Source of the DNA: Coleofasciculus chthonoplastes F2-STO-03 | Lineage (GTDB): Bacteria; Cyanobacteriota; Cyanobacteriia; Cyanobacteriales; Coleofasciculaceae | DNA length: 64,000 nucleotides | Reading direction: 5' to 3' | Assembly: GCA_040222015.1 (NCBI GenBank) | Contig: JAVJWO010000178.1 | Coordinates: 64,001 to 128,000 of the forward strand | Shown here: in pieces, positions 37,199-61,384 of the stretch | Layout of the letters: each line of letters begins with the position of its first letter | Position numbering within the stretch: position 1 is the stretch's first letter | The notes under the pieces: generated by a model | The model's database searches: none | Told to the model about the DNA's origin: nothing | The model's input: only the letters and a program-made list of their open reading frames with translations | Position numbers and translations under genes: made by a program

Positions 37199-39298
37199 AT
37201 GGCAGATGTTACTGTAAACCCGGAATGCCCCTTTTCAGAAGAAACCTTTAACCTTCTTGCACAACTGGATCAAGATTTTTATATAGCGCATGAAGCAGAA
37301 TTTAAAAAGTATGTCGAACAGCCATTTCAAAAGCTTTGTCGTCAAGTAGCGGCTCAACTACCAAATGAGATTATCAAGCGTCTAGAACTGAAACTTGATA
37401 CATCCCCTACTTTAGTACATAAATACTATGAAAGCAATTTTTATAAGAAAGGAACAATTTTTGATACAAAAACTGCTAACACTAGCTTGTTTGTCCATGT
37501 TGTTCCGACGACACTCTGCTTCGGATTGTTCATTATTGATGAAACCAATGATAAAGAGCGATTCATTGAAAATGTAAAAACAAATTTTAACAAAGAAATT
37601 ATTTTTCAGAATACTTTTCTACCTGATAACTGTGAGTTACACTTTTCATCTTCTGGTAAAAGTCTTGATGCCATTAATCCTTTGGGGGATTGGTTAAAGC
37701 TTCTGGCTCGACAGAACAGTCGTACAAAGAATATTCAAGCTAGTGTGCATCTCGAACCCAATGAAGTTTTACTTTATTCTAGTGAACAATTAACGACTCA
37801 GATTAAGAAGACTTTTGAATCTCTTTTTGTTCTATTTTTAATGGCAACTTTTGATTCTCCTATTCAAGAGATAAGACAATACTTAAATCCCTTTCAAAAA
37901 CCAAGACATTTAAACCTAGGAATCAGAAATTATCAAAAAGGCAAATACCAAATATCAATTGAAGAACTTAATAAGGCTTTAGAAGAAGCTCCCAATTTAG
38001 CTGATGCTTATAGCTACCGGGGACAAGCTAAAGCTGAACTGGGAGACATTGAGGGAGCTATATCAGACTATAACCAATTACTACTCATTCAGCCTAAAAA
38101 TTCTGAAGCTTACTATAACCGAGGCAATGCCTACCATAAGCTCAAAGATTATGATACAGCTATTCAGGATTACAATCAAGCTCTGAATATTAATCCTAAC
38201 TTTGCTTTAGCTCATTACCAGAGAGGGCTTACCTACTTAGCACTGGAGAATCACGAGAGAGCAATTGAGGATTTATGCCGAGCTGTAGAACTCTTTGAGC
38301 AGGAAAAAGACATGGATAAATCCGAAGAAGCGCAGAGTATTCTTAAAACAATTCAGCTAGACTACTCTGAACCTTCATTTACGGAGATTTGCCAGAAGGT
38401 TCACTCTAGAGGTTTACGTATCTCCGATAGTACTCTGCGCCGCTATCACTTAGCTCTTAAAAGCCGCAAATTTGTAATTCTCTCTGGAATTAGCGGCACG
38501 GGTAAGACTTGGCTTACCAAAGCTTATGCTAATGCAGTAGAGGCTGAATATCTTTTAGTTCCAGTCGCTCCTAATTGGATGACTAATGAAGATTTGCTAG
38601 GTTATCTCAGTCCAATTGACAACAAATACCACGACACTGACTTTAGCACATTTCTAGAGAAGGCGGAAGAGGAGTATCAGCAAGCCCAAGTTGAAAAACG
38701 TACTCCTCAACCCTATCATCTAGTCTTAGACGAGATGAACTTAGCACGGGTAGAGTATTATTTCGCGAAATTCCTATCTGTAATGGAAGTGCGGATGCGC
38801 GAAGGAGTAGCTCAAATTCAGCTTGCGCCAGATAAACAAGTCTTACTTACCCCAAATCTCTACTTCATTGGTACAGTCAATGTAGATGAAACAACTCATA
38901 GCTTTGCTGACAAGGTTTATGATCGAGCGCAACTCATTGAGCTTGAAGCCCATCGTCAGGCTTTATACGAGCATTTGGGTGATGTTCCCTATCGTGAAAT
39001 CCTGATGAAAATTTGGGATGAAGTACACACTGTTGCTCCCTTTGCTTTCCGGGTTATAGATGAAATCAAGACTTATGTAGAAGAGGCTGAAGCGTTGAAT
39101 GTATCTTGGCAAAATGCTTTAGATGAACAACTTTTGCAGAAGATTCTCCCAAAAGTTAAAGGTACAGATGATCGAGTGGGAGTAGCTCTCCAAGCGTTTG
39201 TAGATATTGCTAATGATAAGGGTTTTACCTTAAGCCATAAAAAAGCGACTAAGATGCTGGAAACATTCAATCAACATGGATTTACCTCCTACTTCTAA
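37199..39298 (+). CDS. McrB-like AAA+ NTPase with DUF2461-like N-terminus and internal TPR repeats
   Basis: GISGTGKT, LVLDEMNLARVEYYF, GTVNVDE, DRA. TPRs AYSYRGQAK, AYYNRGNAY, AHYQRGLTY. Confidence 0.85.
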   Translation: MADVTVNPECPFSEETFNLLAQLDQDFYIAHEAEFKKYVEQPFQKLCRQVAAQLPNEIIKRLELKLDTSPTLVHKYYESNFYKKGTIFDTKTANTSLFVHVVPTTLCFGLFIIDETNDKERFIENVKTNFNKEIIFQNTFLPDNCELHFSSSGKSLDAINPLGDWLKLLARQNSRTKNIQASVHLEPNEVLLYSSEQLTTQIKKTFESLFVLFLMATFDSPIQEIRQYLNPFQKPRHLNLGIRNYQKGKYQISIEELNKALEEAPNLADAYSYRGQAKAELGDIEGAISDYNQLLLIQPKNSEAYYNRGNAYHKLKDYDTAIQDYNQALNINPNFALAHYQRGLTYLALENHERAIEDLCRAVELFEQEKDMDKSEEAQSILKTIQLDYSEPSFTEICQKVHSRGLRISDSTLRRYHLALKSRKFVILSGISGTGKTWLTKAYANAVEAEYLLVPVAPNWMTNEDLLGYLSPIDNKYHDTDFSTFLEKAEEEYQQAQVEKRTPQPYHLVLDEMNLARVEYYFAKFLSVMEVRMREGVAQIQLAPDKQVLLTPNLYFIGTVNVDETTHSFADKVYDRAQLIELEAHRQALYEHLGDVPYREILMKIWDEVHTVAPFAFRVIDEIKTYVEEAEALNVSWQNALDEQLLQKILPKVKGTDDRVGVALQAFVDIANDKGFTLSHKKATKMLETFNQHGFTSYF

Positions 39299-40859
39299 GC
39301 TTAGATTTCTTAACCCTAAAGGTGAAGCATTGCAGGCTCCGTTAGAGTGGCAGCCCGGTTTTATAGAAATTCAAGTCCCTAAAAATAAATGGGAAGAGGT
39401 GCGGCTTTGGCGGCAGGGTGAAGAACTCTCAATCTCCCTAAAACGTTTGGCTAACAAGGCTCGAATCCTGGCTGATTGGCATCGCTCAAATACGGGTTAC
39501 TATCGTCTGCGACTTGAATATCAGGGTGAAATTGAGGAGCAGATTATCACAGTTTGGTCTCAAAAGATTAGCCGCACAGCTTTTGCTCAGATGCTAGAGG
39601 ATTTGGATGCTAGTCTCCCAACCGCAGTAGCCATAGGATTACAACGGATTGGTGCTTTAGCTAGTCTCAAATTGCCACAACCAGGTGAGACGACTTTAGC
39701 ACAGGAAATAGTTCGCCTGCGTCGAGCTATCAATGGCACAGAAAACCGACCCGGGCTTATTAATATTCTGCGTCAAATTGCTGATAACCCTTACCAAATT
39801 CTCAACACTAATGAGATTTGGGTTAGGCAAGAGCAAGTTCGCCGACCTTCTATTAGTGGGCTAGTTCAGGCTTTTAGTCGAGGACATAACCTAGATGCTA
39901 ATGGGCGACCTATTCGCGTACCTGATACACGAGTAGAACATACTATTGATGTTTATGAAAATCAGGTAGTTAAGTTGTTTTTTGAGCTAGTCAATCAAAG
40001 ACTGCGACGAGTTCGATATGTCTTTGACGCTGACCCAAGAGGTAAGCCTCTGGATGAATTAAATTCTCTGTTTGCACAACTGAAAAAGGCTCGACAGCAA
40101 GCTGCTTTTCTCGACCAGGTAAGTCAGCTTAAACGGCAACCCAATCAAATCACGATGGTTCTCTTAAAGCGCCCACCTTACCATGCCGCTTTAGAAGGGT
40201 ATCTAGAATTTATCAGAAGTCTGACAGTGCGATTGGAAGAATCACACCTCGATGCCCCTTTAAAGAATCTTCCTCATCTCTATCAGGTTTGGGGGACGCT
40301 TTGGGTAATAGAAACACTGCTGAAAGTCGCTCACCAAGAAGGATACCAGGTAGAAAAACAGTGCTTGGTGGGTCGGGATAAAAGCGGCATCTATGTACGG
40401 GTTCTACCTAATAATCAGCCAGCATTAGTTTTAATTCACCCTCAGCACCAAAGGAGAGTAAAGTTAATTCCAGAACGAACCTATGGACAAGATGGTGAAC
40501 TACGCAGCGCCAGTGTTAAACTTCGTCCTGATATAGCAGTAGAAATCGAGCGACTTGATGGTTCTCAACAGGTTTACCTTTTTGACCCTAAGTATAAACT
40601 CGATAGTGAAACACAGGACAATCTAGGTAATCAAGGAAAGCCGAAGACAGCAGATATCCAAAAAATGCATACCTATCATGACGCCATCCACGATAGAACG
40701 GGTAATCAAGTTGTGCAATATGCGGCGATTCTTTACCCGGGTTCCTATAAGTCATATTCCGGAGGAGAAATTGAGGCGCTTCCAGCCTATCCTGGAAATG
40801 AGGCTAAACTACAGCAGCACCTGTATCCTGTGTTAGAGAACGCCCTCACGGTTGTGTAA
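39276..40859 (+). CDS. McrC-like DUF2357 + PD-(D/E)XK nuclease
   Basis: TIDVYENQVVK, LYQVW, RPDI...FDPKYK, DIQKMHTYHDAI, ILYP. Overlaps the NTPase gene by 23 bp. Confidence 0.85.
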   Translation: MDLPPTSKLRFLNPKGEALQAPLEWQPGFIEIQVPKNKWEEVRLWRQGEELSISLKRLANKARILADWHRSNTGYYRLRLEYQGEIEEQIITVWSQKISRTAFAQMLEDLDASLPTAVAIGLQRIGALASLKLPQPGETTLAQEIVRLRRAINGTENRPGLINILRQIADNPYQILNTNEIWVRQEQVRRPSISGLVQAFSRGHNLDANGRPIRVPDTRVEHTIDVYENQVVKLFFELVNQRLRRVRYVFDADPRGKPLDELNSLFAQLKKARQQAAFLDQVSQLKRQPNQITMVLLKRPPYHAALEGYLEFIRSLTVRLEESHLDAPLKNLPHLYQVWGTLWVIETLLKVAHQEGYQVEKQCLVGRDKSGIYVRVLPNNQPALVLIHPQHQRRVKLIPERTYGQDGELRSASVKLRPDIAVEIERLDGSQQVYLFDPKYKLDSETQDNLGNQGKPKTADIQKMHTYHDAIHDRTGNQVVQYAAILYPGSYKSYSGGEIEALPAYPGNEAKLQQHLYPVLENALTVV

Positions 40860-44116: not shown

Positions 44117-45316
44117 ATGAAATTGGTAGAAAGACACGTCATCAACCGAAATCATGCCTACTGGCAGGAAGCCGATGAATTGGCGTTTAAGTCAAAGAAT
44201 CTGTACAATCGGGCTAACTATTTGTGCCGTCAACACTTCTTTGAAACGGGGAATCGGTATACGCTACCAACGCTCTACCATTTAGTCAAAGACAGTGAGT
44301 CTTATCGAGCAATGCCGACCAAAGTCTCGAAACAAATTATTAAAAAACTGGTGGAGAGTTGGAAATCTTATCTGGCGGCTCACCAAGACTGGTTAAAGCA
44401 CCGAGACAAATACAAGAGTGAACCCCGCATTCCTAGATACAAGGACAAAGTGAAAGGACGAAACATCGTCATTTACCATCACGAGTCCATATACAAGGCA
44501 GACCTAAAACAGGGACGCTGCCACTTATCAATGAGTAACATCAGCGTCCCCACCCAGATTCCTAACATTGCCGAGGCACGGATTGTTCCCAGTTGTAACT
44601 GCTATATTTTGGAGATTGTTTATGAGTCACCCGAAGTTTCTTTAATTAAGTCGGAGTGGGTAGCAGGGATTGATTTAGGTGTCGATAATCTGGTGGCTTT
44701 AACGTCAAACCAACCCGGTTTTCAGCCAATGTTGGTTAATGGAAGACCACTAAAGAGTCGAAACCAATACTACAACAAGCTCAAATCCCAACTCCAAAGC
44801 TATCTGAGGGGTGAAAGACGAACCAGCCAACGGATACAGGCTCTCACCTATCACCGCAATCGATTTGTGGAAAACTATCTGCACAATACTAGCCGACTAA
44901 TTGTCAACCGACTTAAACAGCAAGGTATTGGCACTCTAGTGATTGGCAAGAATGAAGGATGGAAGCAGAAGGTGAACTTAGGCAAAAGGAATAATCAAAC
45001 CTTTGTCAATATCCCTCATGCTCTTTTAATCGACCAGCTTACCTACAAGTGTGAACTGGCAGGTATCAAAGTAGTTATAATAGAGGAAAGTTACACATCC
45101 ATTACATCAGCTATTGACTTAGAGTTCCCTTGCAAGCAATCAAAATATACTGGCAGACGTGTCAAGAGAGGATTATTTAAGTCAAGTAATGGACGTGTAA
45201 TTAATGCAGACATCAATGGCAGCATCCAAATTATCCGCAAGTATCTTCCAGAGGCGTTCACCGTCGAGGGAGTAGTGAGCTGCGCCGTGGAGCCGATACT
45301 GGTCAATCCAGTGTGA
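44117..45316 (+). CDS. tnpB: TnpB-family RNA-guided nuclease (rearranged RuvC-II type)
   Basis: MKLVERH...SKNLYN, GIDLGVDN, VIGKN, EESYTS, RRVKRGLF, NADING. Confidence 0.9.
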   Translation: MKLVERHVINRNHAYWQEADELAFKSKNLYNRANYLCRQHFFETGNRYTLPTLYHLVKDSESYRAMPTKVSKQIIKKLVESWKSYLAAHQDWLKHRDKYKSEPRIPRYKDKVKGRNIVIYHHESIYKADLKQGRCHLSMSNISVPTQIPNIAEARIVPSCNCYILEIVYESPEVSLIKSEWVAGIDLGVDNLVALTSNQPGFQPMLVNGRPLKSRNQYYNKLKSQLQSYLRGERRTSQRIQALTYHRNRFVENYLHNTSRLIVNRLKQQGIGTLVIGKNEGWKQKVNLGKRNNQTFVNIPHALLIDQLTYKCELAGIKVVIIEESYTSITSAIDLEFPCKQSKYTGRRVKRGLFKSSNGRVINADINGSIQIIRKYLPEAFTVEGVVSCAVEPILVNPV

Positions 45317-46108: not shown

Positions 46109-47551
46109 TCATGGCGGAGTTTGCGATCGCAGATGATCAGGCTTGACTCTATCCAGAATTATAGAGACTGTTTTAGCTTCAGGAGATTGCAGGCGCTGCA
46201 AGATATCTAGGGCTTGCTGTAAGTAGTTGAGGGCGATTTCAATTTCTCCTTTTTTATCCGCGAATAACTGTCCTAGCATTGCCAAGGTGACGGCTTGATT
46301 TTGAACATCACCAATGCGTTGAGTTAAGTCTTTAGACTGCTGATAAAGGGTGATCGCTTCTTCGATTTCCCCCTGTTGGACGTGAATCAATGCCAGATTG
46401 TGTAATATCGCTGCTTCTCCTTGCATATGCCCTGTGCGCCGTGCGATGTTTAAGGATTGTTGATAAAGAGTGATCGCTTCTTCCATTTCCCCCTGTTTAG
46501 CGTAGATATCTGCTAATTGGTTTAATGTTGCTGCTTCTCCTTGCATATGCCCTATACGGCGTGCAATGTTTAAGGATTGTTGATAAAGAGCGATCGCTTG
46601 TTCGATTTTCCCCTGTTTGACGTAGATAGTGGCTAAAGCATGCAACGTTGCCGCTTCTGCTTGCACGTCGCCTAAGTGCTTGGCTATGTTTAAGGATTCT
46701 TGAAAAAGAGCGATCCCTTCCTGAAATATTCCCTGGTTAAGTTGAATTATTCCTAATTCATATAATGCTGTTGCGTGAAGGGATGCTAAATTCTCATTAT
46801 CGTTGGCTAATTCTAAGGCTTGTTCCAAATGTTCCCTAGCTTTGGCAACCTCTCCCTGACTAGAATAGGCTTGTCCTAACTGAATCAAAATATTAATGCG
46901 TGTCTTAAGATGCGCCCCTGTGTCTGAATAACCCGAAGGACAATATTCCATTAACAAACGCTGGAGTAAATCAATCCGTTCTTGCTTTTCCGATAATTCC
47001 AAACTTCCCAGCATTCTATCTGAACCGATAGTTTGCTGAATCGCTTCCTCTCTGGTTAATTGTCCCGTTTCAAAATGAAACACTTTTCTACCCCACGCCC
47101 AAAAATCCGGGGCATATTTCGCCAGTCGAGTTATCGCATAATCGGGTAAAACGAACAAAATAGGATGAGGTACACTAGCTGTAAAGGCATCACGCACAAA
47201 ATTCAGGTCTTGCAGTACGTGCGGATAGTCCCCCGACATACCAATTGATTTCTCTAGACCAATAATAATTAGAACTAATTTTTTATCTTTATCTTTGGGA
47301 ATTTTATTTAATTCCTCAACAATTGCATCCCGCACAAACCGCAAATTGGGATCAGATAATTTCACTACCTCAAACTGAATTTCCTGACATTGAGGATGAG
47401 TCTTGATAATCTCAATTAAATTATCTCTATCTTTAGCAAAGTTCACCTCAACAAAGCCAATAGTTAATTTATAATCCGCAAAATCCATAAACATCACCAG
47501 TTCAGCCAATGACTGCTGATTCCGGGCAATAAAGACCTCTCGTTCTGACAT
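46109..47551 (-). CDS. TPR protein with N-terminal inactive STAND-like domain
   Basis: LQDLNFVRD...LAKYAPDFWAW N-terminal domain, followed by 40-aa TPR repeats (EAATLHALA, AIALYQQSL). Confidence 0.85.
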   Translation of the reverse strand: MSEREVFIARNQQSLAELVMFMDFADYKLTIGFVEVNFAKDRDNLIEIIKTHPQCQEIQFEVVKLSDPNLRFVRDAIVEELNKIPKDKDKKLVLIIIGLEKSIGMSGDYPHVLQDLNFVRDAFTASVPHPILFVLPDYAITRLAKYAPDFWAWGRKVFHFETGQLTREEAIQQTIGSDRMLGSLELSEKQERIDLLQRLLMEYCPSGYSDTGAHLKTRINILIQLGQAYSSQGEVAKAREHLEQALELANDNENLASLHATALYELGIIQLNQGIFQEGIALFQESLNIAKHLGDVQAEAATLHALATIYVKQGKIEQAIALYQQSLNIARRIGHMQGEAATLNQLADIYAKQGEMEEAITLYQQSLNIARRTGHMQGEAAILHNLALIHVQQGEIEEAITLYQQSKDLTQRIGDVQNQAVTLAMLGQLFADKKGEIEIALNYLQQALDILQRLQSPEAKTVSIILDRVKPDHLRSQTPP

Positions 47552-53438: not shown

Positions 53439-54266
53439 CTAGCCGAGCATTTCCGGGTCAATTCCTAAGGTTTGAAGTTGTTCCGGAGTGAGGGATTTAA
53501 GCTGCTGTGCTAACTGCTGTCTTTTCTGTCGCTCTTGTTCTAACTGCTGCAGCGCTTGTTGCTTCTCTAGTCGCTCCTGTTGGGCTTGTTCTTGTCCGGT
53601 TAACCATAAGTTCCCCTGTTCATCCCACCAACGTAGCCAGCATTGTTCTGGCTGATTCAAAATAACTCCTCGCCATACCCCTAACTCAACCTCCATTGGC
53701 TTAATCGGATAATGTCCCCGTTGATTCGGAGTCATCGGCTCATAATCCGTACCGACAAGGTGATACATCTCCAACCTATCGTTGCTGATTTGATAGATGC
53801 CATAATAGGGAACTCTCATCACCCGTTCATAGACCCAAAATTTACCCGGTTTGGTGACGACTCCGGTTTCAGTACGAGATAAGGGAGTATCATCACGTTC
53901 CTCACTCCCATCTCCAGAGGCAAACTCTAAGACGATGGTGGGTGTAATATATTCCCGCCACAACACATAAGAGCGACGGATGACTCCATCTAATCGAGGC
54001 GGTACATTTGGCACATAAAACCAGTCTGGCGCTTCTGCTCCCTTCTCCGGTGGGTCAGTTTCGCGCCAGTAAATCCCACAATCTTGTCCAATACAATATT
54101 GCCCGTCTGGATGCAGTCGCCGCAAGGTTGAATCAAGGGAATCAGTGAGAATTAGGCTTTGGGGATGCTCCTGGAAATTTTTCACGAATGTACCATCTGA
54201 TTCAGGTAACTGGGTATGGTCAGGAAATTGAGGCGGTAGATTAATCTCTGTTAGTATTTCAGGCAT
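53439..54266 (-). CDS. Uma2 family endonuclease-fold protein
   Basis: PDHTQLPESDG, APDWFYV, LEFAS, tail ending LGIDP. Confidence 0.92.
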   Translation of the reverse strand: MPEILTEINLPPQFPDHTQLPESDGTFVKNFQEHPQSLILTDSLDSTLRRLHPDGQYCIGQDCGIYWRETDPPEKGAEAPDWFYVPNVPPRLDGVIRRSYVLWREYITPTIVLEFASGDGSEERDDTPLSRTETGVVTKPGKFWVYERVMRVPYYGIYQISNDRLEMYHLVGTDYEPMTPNQRGHYPIKPMEVELGVWRGVILNQPEQCWLRWWDEQGNLWLTGQEQAQQERLEKQQALQQLEQERQKRQQLAQQLKSLTPEQLQTLGIDPEMLG

Positions 54267-54289
54267 AGTCGAATGAGTGTGGCAACAAA

Positions 54290-54553
54290 TATAGCGCTAC
54301 GCGCCGGGCAATGGGCAATAGGCAATGGGCAATGGGCAATAGGCAATAGGCAATAGGCAATAGGCAATAGTGAAGAAAAACACTTACTCATCAAGGGATT
54401 GAGAAATTTGAATTTTTCTTCCTTTGTCCTAATTAAGCTGTTCGGCATTTAAACCTTAATGTCAATAATGGCGAAAGGATGGTAGTGCGAGCATCTTGCT
54501 CGCTACTAATACCCAATTTAAATGCATGACAGCTTAGAGTGCGTAGTGCTATA
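54290..54553. repeat. TATAGC...GCTATA MITE-like element carrying a GGCAAT(A/G) STRR
   Basis: Terminal IR TATAGCGCTACGC / GCGTAGTGCTATA. An inner segment is the reverse complement of ~35736-35780. Confidence 0.7.
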
Positions 54554-54715
54554 ACTGCTCCTATTGTCCCGCATCGATGAGGTTAACTGAACAGTATTGA
54601 TCCGGCTTCCTCCTCCCTCATCGGAATTTTAGTAGAAAATGTTACTCAACTCGTTTCCGCTACTTTCTCCATTAGACGAAAATAGAGATATTAAGAGAAG
54701 AACGGGAACTCTTGA

Positions 54716-57700
54716 ATGTACATCTATCGCACCTCTGGGTTTAATGAGAAAGCAGAACGCTATGGAATTGGCGATCGCATCGATGATCTGTGTACTCAAC
54801 TGCAAACTCAACGACTCGATGAAGTGCAATCCCGGTTTGAGCGGGTTTATCCCTACCTAAAGCGCCGCATCCTCAACCAACGCCTGATTGGTCGTATCCT
54901 GCATCTGGATCATCAGCAACTCTTGTGCTTCATTGATATCTTTAAACGGGGTGATCACGACTATGAACAGTTTCTGGAATCCCCCCTTGATTATGGTTGC
55001 ACCCATCTGGAACCCCAACTCGATCGGCAACAGATTCGCGATTGCTTAACCCAAGCTCAATCTCAGCAACAGGCGGTTGCACCCTTACCTGAACTCCCGG
55101 AACGCTTGCGCCCTTGGCTTGATCCGCCGGGATGGGAACGAGATATTGTCCCAGACGATTGGGTGATCTATGAAAGTGAAGAATGGGTGAGACAGTTGAC
55201 CACGGTTAAACTGCAAGAGGCGTGGAAAACTTACTATCAGATTATTTCCCAGATTAATACCCATACCGCCCCATCTACGGGAAATGGTAATGGTAATCGT
55301 GCAGCCATCCCCACCGATAGCTTCGCCGAAACTCTGATTATTTCCCGTGAACCCCAGCTTCCCGAAAATGTCAACCTCTGGAGTGAAAACAATTGTTACG
55401 TTCTCTACAGCCAGATTGAAACCACGGATACGAGTGTTCGCGGAGTCTTGTTTCTCTTAGCCGCCTTTGATCATCCCCCCTCCAGCGCCGAGATTACGGA
55501 AGTGGGACACCGCACTACCCTATTTAATGGTGCAAACACCCCCAACCGCTTATCCCAACCCCTAACCATCCACGAATTAACGCCCTTCGCCCGTCGTTCC
55601 TATCCCGCTTACCTCTTAGCCGATGCCGAAAGTTGGCTGGCGATTGAACGGGGGAGAGAGGCAAATCTCGCCCTTTCCCCGGAAGAAGAGGAGATTCTGC
55701 AATCGGTATCTTGTCCTACCCCCCAAACCGATTCACTCCCCCTATTTATTAATGGACGGGCGGGTAGTGGCAAGTCCACGATGCTGATTTATCTGTTTGC
55801 CGACTACTGCTACCGTAAATATTACACCCCCCAAGGACATCGCCGTCCCGAACCGCTTCCGGGTAAACCCCTGTTTCTCACCTACAATGAACGGTTATTA
55901 GACATTGCCCGAGATGGAGTGAATCGACTCCTGCGTTCCCACCATCGCTTTGTCGCTGAACGCAGTCCCGGTGATCACATTCCTAATTGCGATCGCTATT
56001 TTCAACCCTTCGGTAAATTTCTGTTAAGCTTACTTCCCCCCCAGGAACGACAACGGTTTAATCCAGACCACTATATTTCCTTCCATCGGTTCAAACAATT
56101 GTATCAGGGAACCCGTCCCGAACCCGCCCTTGCCAAACTGATCCTGCATCTTCCCCAATCCCGCCGCTATTCTCCAGAAATTTGTTGGCACATTATTCGC
56201 AGTTTTATTAAAGGCTATGGTCAATCGGACGACATGACGCCGGAAGATTATCAAGAGGAAGTTCCTCGCAAAGAACGCACGATTGATGTAGATAAATTTC
56301 AGGGAATCTATGACACGATTTGGCAACACTGGTATAAACATCTAACCACGGAACTGGATTACTGGGATGACCAAGATTTAATTGCCAGAGTCTTGGAATT
56401 GAAGTGTTATCATCCCCACTATACCGCTATCTTTTGCGATGAAGCCCAAGACTTTACCCGCCTAGAGTTACAGCTTATTATGCGGTTGTCGCTGTTTTCC
56501 CAATACCATTTGGGATACCAACCGATTCCTAGTTTACCCTTTGCCTTTGCTGGTGATCCCTTTCAAACCTTAAACCCCACCGGATTCCATTGGTCTAGCA
56601 CCCAATCGGCTTTTGATGCGGAAGTGATTACCGCCCTTGATCCGGCGGATCAGTTAAAGTTGACGGTTAATTTTCAGGAACTATCCTATAACTATCGGTC
56701 TAGTCTATCTATTGTTCAATTCACCAATTTAATTCAGCTTTGGCGTCACGTCCTCTTTGACATTCCCGAACTCCAACCCCAAACCGCATGGCATCCAGGT
56801 GATTTTCCTGAACCGCAAATGTTTATTCTAAATCAGACGATTAGTGCGGAGGAATTAATCACCTATATCAAAGACACGATTATCATTGTTCCCTGTGAAG
56901 AAGGAGAGGAACTGGCGTATGCCCAAACGGATCAAGTATTATCTCAAATCTTTGGGCAGTTGAATCCGAGGGAACTCTTAACAGGGAACAGGAAACAGGG
57001 AACAGAGGAGATGAGGGAATTAACTCAACACTCCACACTATCACCAGAACCCTTAAAAAATGTTTTAAGCGCCATTTCTGCCAAAGGATTGGAATTTAAA
57101 CGGGTGATTCTGTATAAATTTGGTGAAGAGTGTAGCGATAATGTCTGGAACCTACAAGGCGTTGACCAAAAAGTTAAGGTTGAATACTTTTTCAATAAAC
57201 TCTATGTCGCCGCTAGTCGAGCAACAGATTATTTATTTATTGTCGATTCAGACACAGGAAACCGTCAACTGTGGAACTATGCCAGTGATGAAGCCTTGTT
57301 ACAGGCAATGTTAGGATATGCTAAACACAAAAGCCGTTGGCAAGATAATGTGAAAACCCTAGCACCGGGTATGCCAAATATGGTAGAGACAATGCGTGAA
57401 GATGACCCGGGTGCGATCGCGCAAGAATTTCAGCTTAAAGGTTTACATGCAGAGAATCCCAGTTTACTACGCCGAGCCAAACAATTCTATCGGGATTTAG
57501 GAGATATCACTCAAGCCAACTATTGTCAGGCTTGGGCGCTAAAATTTGAACGGCAGTATCGAGACGCGGGTCACTGTTTCCTGGATTTGGGGGAATCGGA
57601 TCAGGCGTGGGATTGCTTCTGGCAGGGGCTGTGCTGGTCAGAATTAGTCGCTTGGGATGATTCGCACCCCCACCATCAATCAGCGCCTGAGGGCATCCTG

Positions 57701-59305
57701 GCGCGGTTTATGGTGACACCTGCTGATGATGTAGCCGCGCTGGATAATTTTACTCGGTATATTATCAGTCATGAATCCGTGGTTATTCAGGGAAATCAAC
57801 AGGTTAATCAGCAAAAACAATGGCAGCAAGGAATTAAGGATTATGCCCGTCGAATTGAAACCATTTCCCATGATTCCTTAATAGACTCATCACAATGGCG
57901 GCAGTTTGGCGAAATTCTAGCTATCTTAGCCTCAGCAGGTTATCCCGAACTAAACCTGCAAGCTGGGACGTGTTTTTATCGCGCCCAAAATTATGCTCAA
58001 GCGATACAGTATTGGGACGAAAGTAATGCAACTCAACTCCCAGACTATCATCGGGCAAAAGCCTTTACTGTGGGTATGCCAGAAGGATTAGCGTATTTGG
58101 CACAAGCAGGCGAAGCTGATCAGATTATCCACCAATGGCGGCAAGCTGGCAAACCGCGCGATCGCAGATGGCTGCGTTATGTCGCCCAGGCGTTGGAAAT
58201 GAAGCAGGAATACCAGCAAGCCTGCGTGGTTTATGTGGGGTTAGATGACTTGGCTAAAGTCAAAGACTGTTTTCAACTGGCGACGCGGGATGGGATCAGA
58301 ATCAAGCTACTACGACTACTGTTCCGTTATTGCTTCCGCCAGAAATACTGGCAAGATGCCCTCGAATTGCTAGACACCGATTTGCCGAATGTCATCGGTT
58401 CAACTGAGGAAAAAAACGCGCTGAATTTCGACATTGTTTATGAACTGGCAGGGTCAGAATTCAATCCCAAAGACTTGAGCAAAGACCAACGCCAGGACTA
58501 TGCACAATTTATAAAAGAGCAGGTTTTATCCAATTGTGACTGGCAAGATTACCTGTTGATGCCACAGATAGGAATTGCCTTGGAAAAAATTGGAACACTG
58601 GTCGAAACGCTAGCATTTTACGAGCAATTTGTCAACGATACGAACCTGCAACAGCGTCAATTTGCCCGGGAACGTTGGATAGGAACGAAGAAAAAACAAG
58701 TGGATTATGTGACAAATCAGGGGAAGCTGAGGAAAGCGGCAAAATTGCAGTCTAATTTGATTAAAAAAGCGCAGCAGTGGGCAATAAATCCCGATAGTAT
58801 CTCGGTGATTCCTCCATTAGCGCCAAGAGAACGTCCTTTGAGAGATAAGGGAGTTAACTCAAAACTTAGTCAGGGCAGGTTTGGCACAAACGTTATTATC
58901 GATAGCGAAAAGCAAGTTCCTCAACCCGCCCCTACACACTCAAAACTTCCCCAATCCCCTGAAACTGAGCAACTGACGATTACTGGATTACCCTCGGACG
59001 TAATAATAGAGGAATTTGAGAATGGGGTGATAGGATTCACGGTGCGTCACTTAGCAATTAAGGTAATGAAATCAATCCATCACGTCTTAATTACCGATAT
59101 TCTTAGTAATCGAGAGGTACGTGTGGATTGGGCAAAATGTCAGGTGAATCTAGGAGACGCGACGGTGGAAGCTGGGGAGAGTCAACAGTTATCTTTTACG
59201 CTGGTTTCTAGTGGTTATCGGGGTGTTCTATGCTGTAATCAGCCAGAACTGCGACTGGAATTGGAGATTCAGGGGTGTGAGAATCGGATTGCTATTTGTT
59301 CGTAG
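54716..59305 (+). CDS. Large SF1 (UvrD-like) helicase-domain protein with TPR-like C-terminal half and a possible RelE-like N-terminus
   Basis: GRAGSGKST, FLTYN, CDEAQD, AGDPFQT, NYRS, SAKGLEF, LYVAASRA, followed by helical repeats. Confidence 0.85.
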   Translation: MYIYRTSGFNEKAERYGIGDRIDDLCTQLQTQRLDEVQSRFERVYPYLKRRILNQRLIGRILHLDHQQLLCFIDIFKRGDHDYEQFLESPLDYGCTHLEPQLDRQQIRDCLTQAQSQQQAVAPLPELPERLRPWLDPPGWERDIVPDDWVIYESEEWVRQLTTVKLQEAWKTYYQIISQINTHTAPSTGNGNGNRAAIPTDSFAETLIISREPQLPENVNLWSENNCYVLYSQIETTDTSVRGVLFLLAAFDHPPSSAEITEVGHRTTLFNGANTPNRLSQPLTIHELTPFARRSYPAYLLADAESWLAIERGREANLALSPEEEEILQSVSCPTPQTDSLPLFINGRAGSGKSTMLIYLFADYCYRKYYTPQGHRRPEPLPGKPLFLTYNERLLDIARDGVNRLLRSHHRFVAERSPGDHIPNCDRYFQPFGKFLLSLLPPQERQRFNPDHYISFHRFKQLYQGTRPEPALAKLILHLPQSRRYSPEICWHIIRSFIKGYGQSDDMTPEDYQEEVPRKERTIDVDKFQGIYDTIWQHWYKHLTTELDYWDDQDLIARVLELKCYHPHYTAIFCDEAQDFTRLELQLIMRLSLFSQYHLGYQPIPSLPFAFAGDPFQTLNPTGFHWSSTQSAFDAEVITALDPADQLKLTVNFQELSYNYRSSLSIVQFTNLIQLWRHVLFDIPELQPQTAWHPGDFPEPQMFILNQTISAEELITYIKDTIIIVPCEEGEELAYAQTDQVLSQIFGQLNPRELLTGNRKQGTEEMRELTQHSTLSPEPLKNVLSAISAKGLEFKRVILYKFGEECSDNVWNLQGVDQKVKVEYFFNKLYVAASRATDYLFIVDSDTGNRQLWNYASDEALLQAMLGYAKHKSRWQDNVKTLAPGMPNMVETMREDDPGAIAQEFQLKGLHAENPSLLRRAKQFYRDLGDITQANYCQAWALKFERQYRDAGHCFLDLGESDQAWDCFWQGLCWSELVAWDDSHPHHQSAPEGILARFMVTPADDVAALDNFTRYIISHESVVIQGNQQVNQQKQWQQGIKDYARRIETISHDSLIDSSQWRQFGEILAILASAGYPELNLQAGTCFYRAQNYAQAIQYWDESNATQLPDYHRAKAFTVGMPEGLAYLAQAGEADQIIHQWRQAGKPRDRRWLRYVAQALEMKQEYQQACVVYVGLDDLAKVKDCFQLATRDGIRIKLLRLLFRYCFRQKYWQDALELLDTDLPNVIGSTEEKNALNFDIVYELAGSEFNPKDLSKDQRQDYAQFIKEQVLSNCDWQDYLLMPQIGIALEKIGTLVETLAFYEQFVNDTNLQQRQFARERWIGTKKKQVDYVTNQGKLRKAAKLQSNLIKKAQQWAINPDSISVIPPLAPRERPLRDKGVNSKLSQGRFGTNVIIDSEKQVPQPAPTHSKLPQSPETEQLTITGLPSDVIIEEFENGVIGFTVRHLAIKVMKSIHHVLITDILSNREVRVDWAKCQVNLGDATVEAGESQQLSFTLVSSGYRGVLCCNQPELRLELEIQGCENRIAICS

Positions 59306-59406
59306 TCAGCACTTTAGTGCTGGAAAATAGAGCATCTGAAGCCACTAAAGTGGTTACTACAAACGGACTGGGTTATAACGGGGGTAGCAAATTAGCGGCA
59401 GTTTTT

Positions 59407-59976
59407 TTAAAATCGCAACCCTACGCCACCCTGCACCGAAACCGCTGTTCCGCCTCCTTTACGATAGGCATCAAAGGCAATAATTGCATTCCCAAAAAGC
59501 ACTGTAGTACCCCCAGGAACAACATAATCAATCCCCGGTTGCAAAGCGAAGCTAGTTTTATCTCCCACCGGTGAGGGCGTATCACCACTCGCAAACGCCG
59601 CACCCGCCCCCAGATACACATCCGTTTGCCAGTTCAGGGGAAAATCATAAGAAATAGTTGGCACCACCGCCGTACCTGCACCAATCAGGGCTTGCGCTCG
59701 CAGAGAGACAGGAAGTTCTAAGAGTTTGTATCGTACCGCCAAAACTCCCCCAAATTGCCGCCCTTCACCGCGATCATCTTCTTCAATACCGAATGTACCA
59801 CCCACTCCCACATAACTGCCGTAAGCGGCTTGAGCTGATGCTGATGTGGGGGTAAACGCCAGACTCGCGAGTACCCCTGTGGCAAGGGTTACGCTGATGC
59901 CAATAAAATGTCGCATATTCGGACTCCTCAGTACTGATGTCGCTGATTTTAGCTTGTGATCTACCTGACTTTCCAT
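59407..59976 (-). CDS. Small outer-membrane beta-barrel protein (start probably MRHF)
   Basis: Signal peptide, SYVGVGG, and terminal GGVGLRF. Confidence 0.8.
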   Translation of the reverse strand: MESQVDHKLKSATSVLRSPNMRHFIGISVTLATGVLASLAFTPTSASAQAAYGSYVGVGGTFGIEEDDRGEGRQFGGVLAVRYKLLELPVSLRAQALIGAGTAVVPTISYDFPLNWQTDVYLGAGAAFASGDTPSPVGDKTSFALQPGIDYVVPGGTTVLFGNAIIAFDAYRKGGGTAVSVQGGVGLRF

Positions 59977-60172: not shown

Positions 60173-61384
60173 TTATTTTGCAGAGGATGAGTTAACATCA
60201 ATGGTTATCCAAAACTTTGACTTTTTGAACTTAAGTAGGAACGGAGACCATAAACTCCCGCCACGCCTAAAAGCTCGCCTGTTGTGTGCCGCGTTGTGGT
60301 CAGCATGGGCAAGGTAGCCACAATGAACACACCTAAACCTGTCACCTTTTCGGTTTCGTCTATCCCATCTGTTGCAGTTCGAGCAGAACTGCGAGGTCTT
60401 GAAGGGGCCTTTCACCACAAGCTGAATCCCCTCCTCCTCACACAACATTTCCAAAAACTGCACCAAAGTACGATAAAGCCAATGAGACAGCCGCCTGTTA
60501 AACAGGCGAGAGAACGTCCCTCGTTTTCCCTGTTTAACCTTCTTCAAATCCTCAATACTGAGAATCTTTATAGAAGACCAATCAACTTTCTTCAGAACCT
60601 GACCCAACATCGATTTAATTTCGGCGTGGGTATGCTTTTGACGCTTTTGAAACCCCTGAATTCGTTGATAAATATCTTCTCCAACTACCTGGGAGTCACT
60701 GAATACGACGCCGTTTTTGTAGTTAGAATCCATCCCAACTACCTGACCTGATGTTCTCAAGGGAGGTCTAACTTTCTCAAAGATCAAATCAACACCTCGG
60801 CTTATCTCGACTCCGCTCGATACAAGTCGCTCGGTGTTGACCCTGAGCGAAGTCGAAGGGTCAATCCACAATCGCCCTTTCTTCAATCCCATGCGGATCG
60901 TTTTAGAGAGTTGCCATCCCTGAGCTAACCGTTGATTGATTACTGAGGTGGACTTGAGCGGGATAACTAACTTGGGCGCCCCCGATCCAATCAGTTTGAC
61001 GCACCAATCAAAGCCCTTTTTTTCAAAGGGTTCGATGGTGGCGAAGTGATAGAACAATGTAACTGTGTGCCATTTTAGCTGGGGTTTCCGTTTTCTATCT
61101 TTCTTGTGTTGAGAAAAAACACACTCACTCGCTTGTTTTGCAAGTGCTTGCCCTAAACGGGTTGTGATCCCAAACTTTTTCTTGGCTCGGTGCACTGTTG
61201 GCAGGTCAGCCAGTTTCCCCGAAAAATCTTGACGTTGCCAAAACAAGTCAACAAAATACTGCATAACATCGTGGCATTGACCCAAAAATTCGCGCACAAT
61301 TTTCGACTTACCCACATTCAAATCATTCAGGTAAACCCTAGCTGTACGCCTCATCAAATTTTTGTTTCTTAGAAATGCCATCAT
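60173..61384 (-). CDS. tnpB: TnpB/Cas12f-like nuclease with in-frame repeat insertion and probable C-terminal frameshift
   Basis: VGMDSN, SIEDL, TSQFCSNC...FRCVHCG, HADHNAA, plus a 24-aa PSTSLRV... insertion. Confidence 0.85.
   Translation of the reverse strand: MMAFLRNKNLMRRTARVYLNDLNVGKSKIVREFLGQCHDVMQYFVDLFWQRQDFSGKLADLPTVHRAKKKFGITTRLGQALAKQASECVFSQHKKDRKRKPQLKWHTVTLFYHFATIEPFEKKGFDWCVKLIGSGAPKLVIPLKSTSVINQRLAQGWQLSKTIRMGLKKGRLWIDPSTSLRVNTERLVSSGVEISRGVDLIFEKVRPPLRTSGQVVGMDSNYKNGVVFSDSQVVGEDIYQRIQGFQKRQKHTHAEIKSMLGQVLKKVDWSSIKILSIEDLKKVKQGKRGTFSRLFNRRLSHWLYRTLVQFLEMLCEEEGIQLVVKGPFKTSQFCSNCNRWDRRNRKGDRFRCVHCGYLAHADHNAAHNRRAFRRGGSLWSPFLLKFKKSKFWITIDVNSSSAK
60789..60860. repeat. 72-bp nested small-dispersed-repeat (SDR-like) insertion
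   Basis: Flanked by duplicated TCAA. Cores CTCGACTCCGCTCG and TGAGCGAAGTCGAAG; related units at ~6200-6225 and 20918-20960. Confidence 0.8.

Follow-up and report, generated by a model that had tools for sequence, protein, structure and literature searches.

A UvrD-like helicase with two predicted RelE-like folds in Coleofasciculus: a candidate single-chain anti-phage module

Results

The gene and its product

We analysed a 64,000-nucleotide stretch of Coleofasciculus chthonoplastes F2-STO-03 (contig JAVJWO010000178.1 of assembly GCA_040222015.1, positions 64,001 to 128,000 of the forward strand), hereafter the window, and within it a gene at 54716..59305 on the forward strand. It is an uninterrupted open reading frame (ORF) of 1529 codons from ATG to stop, flanked by a Uma2-family gene in divergent orientation and by a convergent gene for an outer-membrane beta-barrel, and it is present in one copy in its own 7.7-Mb genome (219 contigs). 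A first-pass annotation, made from the letters alone, had described the product as a RelE-like toxin, a UvrD-like helicase and TPR-like helices in one chain, and all the strings that it quoted (IYRT, YLKRR, NQRLIGRI and LCFIDIFKR included) are found in the translation in the order given. The parts that we distinguish are as follows.

54716..59305, + strand: whole gene, 1529 codons plus stop, single copy in the genome
54716..55030, + strand: domain 1, residues 1-105, predicted RelE fold, predicted ribonuclease (RNase) effector
54860..54964, + strand: putative active-site residues K49 (54860-62), R56 (54881-83), R78 (54947-49) and Y83 (54962-64), with Y47 beside K49
55154..55525, + strand: domain 2, residues 147-270, degenerate RelE-like fold with a disordered insert (residues 191-210) and no K/R/R/Y set
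55658..57325, + strand: divergent UvrD-like superfamily 1 (SF1) helicase core, residues 315-870, Walker A at 55754-55780 and motif II (DEAQD) at 56438-56452
57353..58765, + strand: helical region, residues 880-1350, predicted sensor or assembly part, TPR-like at best
58958..59302, + strand: conserved C-terminal domain, residues 1415-1529, a conserved block in a 27-sequence alignment, described as beta-rich in the first-pass annotation

A search of 5.8 billion proteins returned 786 homologs at E<=1e-3. Almost every one of the 120 best extends over the full length, the top one, labelled Coleofasciculus, is 96% identical, and in the 27-sequence alignment, which reaches down to 41% identity, conservation spans the chain from residue 1 to the C-terminus. 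Together with the invariant motifs described below, these homologs indicate that the frame and its motif pattern are not due to chance. Contigs of four metatranscriptome runs span 55661-57860 at ~94-96% identity (one of 1136 nt shows 65 differences to the gene); their source is a relative and DNA carry-over is possible, so we do not count them as evidence of transcription. Scanning for promoters and terminators gave a signal no higher than shuffled controls, and Rfam had no match over 54200-59700.

The helicase core carries the complete set of UvrD-like motifs that the first-pass annotation had claimed, with GRAGSGKST (347-355), DEAQD (575-579), GDPFQ (613-617), NYRS (659-662), KGLEF (790-794) and YVAASRA (830-836) in order, and the SF1 motif residues are invariant both in the 27-sequence alignment and in a 22-sequence alignment reaching down to ~20% identity. 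We take these forms of motifs I-VI to be of the UvrD (DNA) type and not of the UPF1 type; the 'NLALS.EEE.IL' stretch before the Walker A presumably resembles the N-terminal motif of UvrD-type helicases. Library matches to the core lie under their cut-offs: Pfam UvrD_C at E 3.4e-5 and 23.8 bits (gathering cut-off 25.6), UvrD-helicase at 15.6 bits (cut-off 23) and, over the P-loop only, AAA_16 at 18.9 bits against 32.6 and nSTAND_NTPase5 at 15.7 against 34. Some homologs carry a precomputed PF13361 or PF00580. A full-length profile found no solved helicase or TPR relative in the PDB at E<0.05. Given the sub-threshold matches and this lack of a solved relative, the protein is a very divergent SF1 helicase with unannotated ends. 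Pfam run on four separate pieces gave no family for residues 1-95, 129-330 or 1411-1529, the NCBIfam scan of the protein gave nothing useful (an NsdA-family TPR-like model matches only below threshold), and the ESM Atlas, searched with the whole protein and with residues 1410-1529, gave no more than generic UvrD-like clusters and leads at chance level (<=0.84).

Behind the core, the '~500 aa of TPR-like helices' of the first-pass annotation do appear as a helical region at residues 880-1350, but their TPR nature stays below every threshold: TPR_1 reaches E 0.34, a further set (TPR_16, TPR_6, TPR_1 and TPR_14) E 0.39-3.1, the NsdA-family model E 0.004 and 16.7 bits against a cut-off of 75, and a designed CTPR chain E 0.11. 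In contrast, a true TPR protein encoded elsewhere in the window matches a designed TPR at E 3e-123. The helical-region profile recurs in 63 of 66 large ORFs at metagenome loci. A hidden Markov model of the C-terminal domain finds it in 57/66 ORFs at genome loci and in 13/66 metagenome ORFs, the 13 all in the cyanobacterial-type clade, to which the domain is confined; for residues 1415-1529 neither Pfam nor the ESM Atlas gave anything above chance.

Two RelE-like folds at the N-terminus

Structure prediction covered the N-terminal 335 residues. AlphaFold2, run on an alignment of the first ~335 residues from 44 loci (A2), gave a mean predicted local distance difference test score (pLDDT) of 84, with most 10-residue blocks of residues 1-110 at 91-98. 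Domain 1 is predicted as a strand, two helices and a short third, three long strands and a helix, and its best structural matches in Foldseek are the RNases HigB2, RelE and Cami1. Thus, the RelE-like pattern that had been seen in the first ~85 residues is borne out at the level of the fold, although a sequence-profile match to toxins is absent.

The putative active site was read from 364 long family proteins, 325 of which match a profile of the first 100 residues (A3), giving 285 unique N-domain sequences. R56 is arginine in 282 of the 285, Y83 tyrosine in 279, R78 arginine in 260 (lysine in 15) and K49 lysine in 255 (arginine in 11). The spacing of these four residues, 7, 22 and 5, compares with 7, 20 and 6 for K54/R61/R81/Y87 of RelE; in E. 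coli relE (NC_000913.3), K52, K54, R61, R81 and Y87 were confirmed at those positions. According to the account of RelE catalysis in PMC5027501, K52 or K54 is the general base and R81 the general acid, while Y87 stacks on the substrate. The cross-phylum conservation of K49, R56, R78 and Y83 argues, from sequence, for a working site. No PADLOC or NCBIfam model matches the N-terminus. Among 27 shorter proteins with the N-terminal module, mostly labelled partial or on short contigs, there was no clear case of a stand-alone or split form, and 25 short N-domain matches contain no meaningful Pfam family (one chance-level PET117 match).

A second, similar unit had been suspected to start at WVIYESEEW (149-157), and this too holds, more weakly than the first. 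A separate model of residues 122-335 (A4) reaches a pLDDT of 82 and a predicted template modelling score of 0.74, and it repeats the order of elements, with a strand, helices, the disordered insert (191-210), three strands and a helix. Conserved in domain 2 are E153, W157, S232, D238, L247, F251 and P255. Aligned with hhalign, domains 1 and 2 reach a probability of 2.7%, with only an 'R.YP.YL' mini-motif in common. Predicting the complex of domain 1 with domain 2, which bears on whether one masks the other in cis, scored 0.00, a result that gives no answer and is evidence neither way.

A family that spans phyla

The A3 profile matches 450 representative clusters at E<=1e-3 (among 1.84 billion representatives), most of them 1370-1625 aa long. 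Starting from a distant homolog (27% identity over residues 285-1116) in G040, a genome labelled Sericytochromatia, we reached relatives that carry the labels Cyclobacteriaceae, Pseudomonadales, Rosistilla and Rhodocaloribacter, and the divergent N-termini of other phyla align to A3 with an hhalign probability of 92% (E 6e-7, 75 columns). A metagenome scan added 296 relatives; 66 of the 80 loci kept carry an ORF >1100 aa, and 64 of these 66 show domain 2, the helicase core or both. In a FastTree tree of 51 dereplicated proteins, midpoint-rooted and with several long branches, of which only the coarse clade split is used, 30 rows form a cyanobacterial clade (support 99), the protein of locus L084 is its sister and the other 20 lie outside.

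The C-terminal part differs among these groups, being helical with the C-terminal domain in cyanobacteria, helical alone in most others and an ABC ATPase in some: in P0220, P0276, P0278, P0285 and P0288 the helical C-terminus is replaced by an AAA_15/AAA_21/SMC_N ABC ATPase. Since the tandem RelE module and the helicase are the constant part of the family and the C-terminus varies, we read the family as a motor to which an effector is coupled and whose sensor or assembly part can be exchanged.

In some non-cyanobacterial relatives, a DUF3226 gene starts at most 3 bases from the helicase stop codon (L128:8889-11413; L136:14263-14913), and the next gene in L128 encodes an AAA_15/AAA_21 ATPase matching GajA, PtuA, AriA and Old models. 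Fused or adjacent, these DUF3226/ATPase arrangements form a Gabija-like pairing on a RelE-bearing helicase.

Within cyanobacteria the gene is patchy. It occurs in 26/401 genomes of an even phylum sample (26/394 of high quality) and in 20/152 genera, and by family in 3/3 (f1), 2/2 (f7), 2/2 (f16), 3/6 (f3), 6/26 (f2), 0/46 (f5) and 0/33 (f25) of the sampled genomes; in genus g5, one genome of 19 has it. Early stops occur in 4 of 61 loci, and genome G313 keeps a 442-aa open frame. A phage collection had no match to the protein, and plasmids gave two distant helicase-only matches (23-24% identity) of other architecture. One viral (IMG/VR) contig carries a family member of 1450 aa and 30% identity at its end (L102:184-4536), adjoining a DDE transposase and a TerL/TerS/methylase/ParB-like module; this member may belong to the cargo of a prophage or mark the edge of one.

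Genomic neighbourhoods

The first-pass annotation had stated that no antitoxin gene is adjacent, and this is the case: the flanks are the Uma2 and outer-membrane beta-barrel genes. When all ORFs of 81 loci were clustered, none emerged as a conserved neighbour; the two largest of the other clusters, with 25 and 21 loci, occupy mixed positions.

Neighbours were compared with PADLOC models (E<=1e-10) at 25 dereplicated genome loci (100 ORFs, +-2) and 25 dereplicated metagenome loci (148 ORFs, +-3). Of the metagenome loci, 20 are non-cyanobacterial and without the C-terminal domain, and 12 of those 20 have a PADLOC match within +-3 ORFs. These are listed below, all by PADLOC except where Pfam is named; at the other eight (L103, L135, L136, L141, L154, L156, L161 and L170) there was no match.

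L104: PDC-M15A/B
L118: DEDDh
L128: GajA/PtuA/AriA-like ATPase
L129: type I S and M subunits
L132: PDC-M26A and IetA, with DUF2357+PDDEXK_7 by Pfam
L137: DndA, B, C and D
L145: AbiU with type I M and S subunits
L152: CBASS cyclase, HORMA and RtcR-CARF
L158: type III methyltransferase with a UvrD/RecD-like protein
L160: DndB with AbiLi/ii
L173: AbiEi/ii
L175: DrmB

In addition, the gene of G040 is immediately followed by hsdM, a YhcG nuclease gene, hsdS and GmrSD. That of L084, the only one of the 25 genome loci in a restriction-modification operon, lies between hsdS and hsdR, and that of L106, which belongs to the cyanobacterial clade, beside cas1, cas2 and a reverse transcriptase gene. Overall, non-cyanobacterial relatives lie beside defence genes at 12 of 20 loci, and cyanobacterial members are mostly found among housekeeping genes, with lineage-level synteny.

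Other features of the window

The flanks of the gene hold genes for Uma2, PNP/UDP phosphorylase, the outer-membrane beta-barrel, TnpB, fasciclin, GGT and an Rce1-like protease. Besides these, the following features were recorded in or around the gene.

54434..54536, no strand assigned: hairpin element, like a miniature inverted-repeat transposable element (MITE), 103 bp, 5' intergenic, ~180 bp upstream of the start codon
58842..58956, + strand: in-frame copy of a dispersed repeat, ~115 bp, in the linker (~residues 1376-1414), with 43 further matches in its own genome at 77-88% identity
37199-39298, + strand: canonical TPR protein, 699 aa, the one matching a designed TPR
39276-40859, + strand: DUF2357+PDDEXK_7 (McrC-like) nuclease gene, 14 kb upstream of the helicase gene, its start overlapped by 23 bases by the TPR gene
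44117-45316 (+ strand) and 60173-61384 (- strand): TnpB/OrfB_IS605-type ORFs in the flank region, with a Cas12f1-like TNB domain
46109-47551, - strand: 480-aa protein, strong TPR_12/TPR_10 from residue ~220, N-terminal ~200 aa without a Pfam family

The ~115-bp repeat also has copies inside other long ORFs of the genome. Its insertion is common to the orthologs L009, L010, L011, L013 and L025 (87-93% identity) and absent from L012 (84%) and L036 (74%), a pattern indicating that it entered within the Coleofasciculus lineage and left the frame unbroken. Residues 1376-1420 had been considered as a shared protein domain, a candidate that was rejected, as their genome matches are this dispersed DNA repeat. 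The 103-bp element has terminal inverted repeats and forms a near-perfect hairpin (predicted fold -39.6 kcal/mol); with at least 40 further copies in the genome, up to 99% identical, it resembles a young MITE. Metatranscriptome contigs accumulate at this element (summed word depth 40,000-80,000).

The partner of the DUF2357+PDDEXK_7 nuclease is thus a TPR protein, in the place that an McrB GTPase would normally take, and a nuclease of the same type adjoins the family member in L132. The 480-aa protein could be another sensor-type protein that lacks an effector or NTPase. No IS200-type TnpA gene turned up next to either TnpB ORF.

Discussion

A single-chain, helicase-gated RelE-type module

The gene and its architecture, as first described, are confirmed, and the reading of this architecture as sensor, motor and effector is supported as far as architecture and family context go; the function is inferred. 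Our preferred reading, to which we give an even chance, is that the protein is a single-chain, helicase-gated abortive-infection module of RelE type directed against phages. Under this reading, domain 1 would be an active, ribosome-dependent mRNA endonuclease like RelE. Its activity would be suppressed in cis, and domain 2, as an internal pseudo-toxin or mask, is a plausible agent of this; such silencing would explain the missing antitoxin gene. The inhibition would be relieved when the helicase engages nucleic acid and hydrolyses ATP, or when the helical region binds a ligand. Released domain 1 would then cleave mRNA on ribosomes, and the resulting arrest of translation would stop the spread of the phage within a filament or mat.

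In favour of this reading are the conserved active-site-like residues of domain 1, the invariant SF1 motifs, the size and spread of the family, its accessory character (patchy occurrence, early stops, no conserved neighbour), the defence genes beside non-cyanobacterial relatives, and the precedents of Cami1 and the CnuH RTL domain, in which RelE domains serve as defence effectors joined to a sensor or motor. Several results weigh against this reading. As for the toxin, no sequence method ties domain 1 or domain 2 to the RelE/ParE families: there is no Pfam toxin match (such as PF05016) on the whole protein or on residues 1-95; the A3 profile run against the PDB gave seven matches, all at E>=0.34 and none a toxin; and hhalign of A3 against the seven PF05016 (ParE-family) ORFs of the same genome reached a probability of 0.2%. 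The Foldseek E-values of the structural matches are weak (best 0.013), and the register K49=K54, R56=R61, R78=R81 and Y83=Y87 was set by hand from secondary structure, without superposition. As for defence, PADLOC on the protein itself gives a marginal GajB match (E 3.9e-5, 20.8 bits), and the window holds no defence island around the gene. At the 25 genome loci the neighbours are mostly housekeeping genes (AspRS, FBPase, PolA, RecA, EF-G, HtrA, glycosyltransferases), the exceptions by Pfam being Uma2 (L030, L083), ParDE (L056), DUF433 (L030), a DDE transposase (L034) and L084; PADLOC confirms L084 and a Uma2-like PDC-S17 in L030, with generic cross-hits in 7/25. Synteny exists at the level of lineages, with a rhodanese gene downstream in eight loci and PolA downstream in L072 and L081, and what is shared among cyanobacteria looks like stable vertical inheritance. 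The clade of the window gene is not defence-associated. The contrast with the other phyla, 12/20 loci with defence matches against 1-2/25, is indicative only, since the flanks differ in width (+-3 against +-2 ORFs) and the comparison is without a matched random-gene control. Moreover, the activity, the trigger and the autoinhibition of the module are our proposals.

Alternative explanations

It is unlikely, in our view, that the protein serves housekeeping surveillance of RNA or ribosomes in filamentous cyanobacteria instead of immunity, with the helicase tracking mRNA and the RelE-like domain cutting the A-site mRNA of stalled ribosomes. It would then be a domesticated quality-control factor, analogous in one chain to mRNA surveillance by a helicase plus an endonuclease. 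The housekeeping neighbours and lineage-level synteny (rhodanese, FBPase, PolA) of the cyanobacterial members would suit such a role, as would the single copy in the genome studied here and the presence of the gene in every sampled genome of f1 (3/3), f7 (2/2) and f16 (2/2), and the RelE fold binds the ribosomal A site in every characterised RNase among the structural matches. However, 375/401 sampled cyanobacteria have no match, including all of f5 (0/46) and f25 (0/33), and some copies are truncated or pseudogenised (4/61 loci; the 442-aa frame in G313), neither of which fits a housekeeping factor. Relatives of the same architecture lie in defence islands, and the motifs are presumably of the UvrD (DNA) and not the UPF1 type, a typing for which the tool support is the Pfam UvrD matches only.

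We consider it rather improbable that both RelE-like folds are catalytically dead adaptors for protein, RNA or the ribosome, and that the helicase alone or separate partners act, as a DNA-directed motor of defence or repair like GajB. The folds show no sequence similarity to active toxins and domain 2 clearly lacks the basic residue set; moreover, the AAA_15/AAA_21 ABC ATPases that are fused or adjacent, with DUF3226, in some relatives (P0220, P0276, P0278, P0285 and P0288; L128 and L136) recall GajA plus GajB, and the authors of the CoCoNuT study left the activity of their own RelE-like RTL domain undecided (PMC11090510). A mere scaffold is, however, hard to square with four RelE-type positions kept in at least 255 of 285 N-domains across phyla, and no partner gene is conserved in the 81 loci.

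A more far-reaching version, which we think quite improbable, would join immunity and surveillance in one chain: once the motor is loaded on nucleic acid that is aberrant or comes from an invader, ATP hydrolysis would unmask the tandem RelE unit, which would dock in the ribosomal A site and cut the message. In most phyla, this helicase-coupled mRNA surveillance would serve as a weapon of defence; with the added C-terminal domain, it would have become domesticated as a chromosomal switch for translation control or altruistic arrest in mat-forming filamentous cyanobacteria, the degenerate fold serving as an antitoxin in cis. If true, the second fold would provide the first case in which a toxin paralogue acts as an in-cis antitoxin.

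The two remaining alternatives are very improbable. A ParE-like domain 1 poisoning DNA gyrase instead of cleaving RNA, next to a UvrD-like motor on DNA, is hard to reconcile with the best structural matches being RNases (HigB2, RelE and Cami1) and with a conserved K/R/R/Y set that matches RelE. Equally doubtful is a selfish, fused toxin-antitoxin (TA) or addiction module without a defence role, with domain 2 or the rest of the chain as the cis antitoxin that stabilises the locus; fused TA mono-gene modules exist in the RelE/ParE superfamily, with 195 genes reported (PMC11980606), and the gene contains or has near it two dispersed repeat elements and two TnpB genes, but a part of 1400 aa with a helicase and helical repeats, whose ATPase motifs are invariant across phyla, goes far beyond the needs of an antitoxin, and the phage collection had no match and plasmids only the two distant helicase-only ones.

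Relation to known systems

RelE-type toxins have usually been studied as small two-gene TA modules. Full-text literature searches returned no description of a protein combining RelE, a UvrD helicase and TPR. The 2025 survey of mono- and multidomain RelE/ParE toxins by Gerdes started from Pfam families, which do not detect domain 1; the words 'helicase', 'UvrD' and 'TPR' are absent from its main text, and 'helicase' and 'UvrD' from its supplement, of which Table S2 was covered in part, so that an entry there is possible (PMC11980606).

The nearest precedent in print is the RelE-like 'RNase toxin-like' (RTL) domain of the CoCoNuT CnuH helicases (Bell et al. 2024, PMC11090510). In CnuH, an SmpB-like OB fold is joined to a RelE/colicin-D-like RTL domain and to an SF1 helicase of UPF1-like type, within McrBC-type operons predicted to target RNA. 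In types II and III-A, as here, a RelE/colicin-D-fold domain lies N-terminal to an SF1 helicase in a predicted defence system, and the RTL domain, like domain 1, was detected by structure only, without sequence conservation to known toxins. The differences are that CnuH is UPF1-like, has one RTL after the OB fold and shares its operon with the McrBC-like CnuB/CnuC and with CnuE, a HEPN protein (PMC11090510); the present protein has UvrD-type motifs, two tandem N-terminal RelE-like folds, a long helical tail and no conserved partner. No McrB-like or HEPN gene adjoins the gene studied here. Given these four differences, we rate the family as a variant of RelE-fold effectors fused to sensor or motor modules, set apart by its helicase type, tandem N-terminal RelE folds, helical tail and stand-alone genetics.

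With the RelE/ParE toxins RelE, HigB2, YoeB and YafQ (BECR fold), domain 1 has in common a putative Lys/Arg/Arg/Tyr set that the hand-set register places against K54/R61/R81/Y87 of RelE; it differs from them in that sequence similarity is not detectable, no antitoxin gene is present and the fold is repeated in tandem within a 1529-aa chain. Cami1, a CARF-RelE ancillary effector of type III CRISPR (PDB 8phj, 8phb), has a CARF sensor that binds cyclic oligoadenylate and a C-terminal RelE, unlike the present protein, in which no CARF family is found among Pfam matches at E<=1. The single-gene STAND NTPases of the Avs/AVAST systems have, we assume, a like plan, with an N-terminal effector, a central P-loop NTPase and a C-terminal helical-repeat sensor. 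However, the NTPase here is an SF1 helicase with motifs II-VI, its STAND and AAA_16 matches being restricted to the P-loop and far under the cut-offs. Gabija also uses a UvrD-like defence helicase, to which the weak GajB match points, and the fused or adjacent AAA_15/AAA_21 ATPase of some members matches GajA, PtuA, AriA and AbiLi models; on the other side, that GajB match is marginal and no GajA-like gene lies in the flanks of the window gene. To our knowledge, GajB carries no RelE-like domains. Finally, the helicase and TPR layout had been likened to eukaryotic TRANK1-like proteins at first pass, a possible likeness; no eukaryotic sequence is found among the homolog matches with a named source, and a literature search on TRANK1 returned nothing.

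Few immune outputs with a RelE fold are known (Cami1 and the RTL domain of CnuH), and the family would add a large class that spans phyla, with a tandem RelE fold built into an ATP-driven helicase and no antitoxin. Surveys based on sequence are blind to it because no Pfam, NCBIfam or PADLOC model matches its N-terminus. If the proposed mechanism is true, the protein would offer a model both for the gating of a ribosome-dependent nuclease by a motor and for the silencing of toxin folds in cis. Filamentous cyanobacteria, in which genes are seldom located in defence islands that can be recognised, would likewise gain a candidate defence gene.

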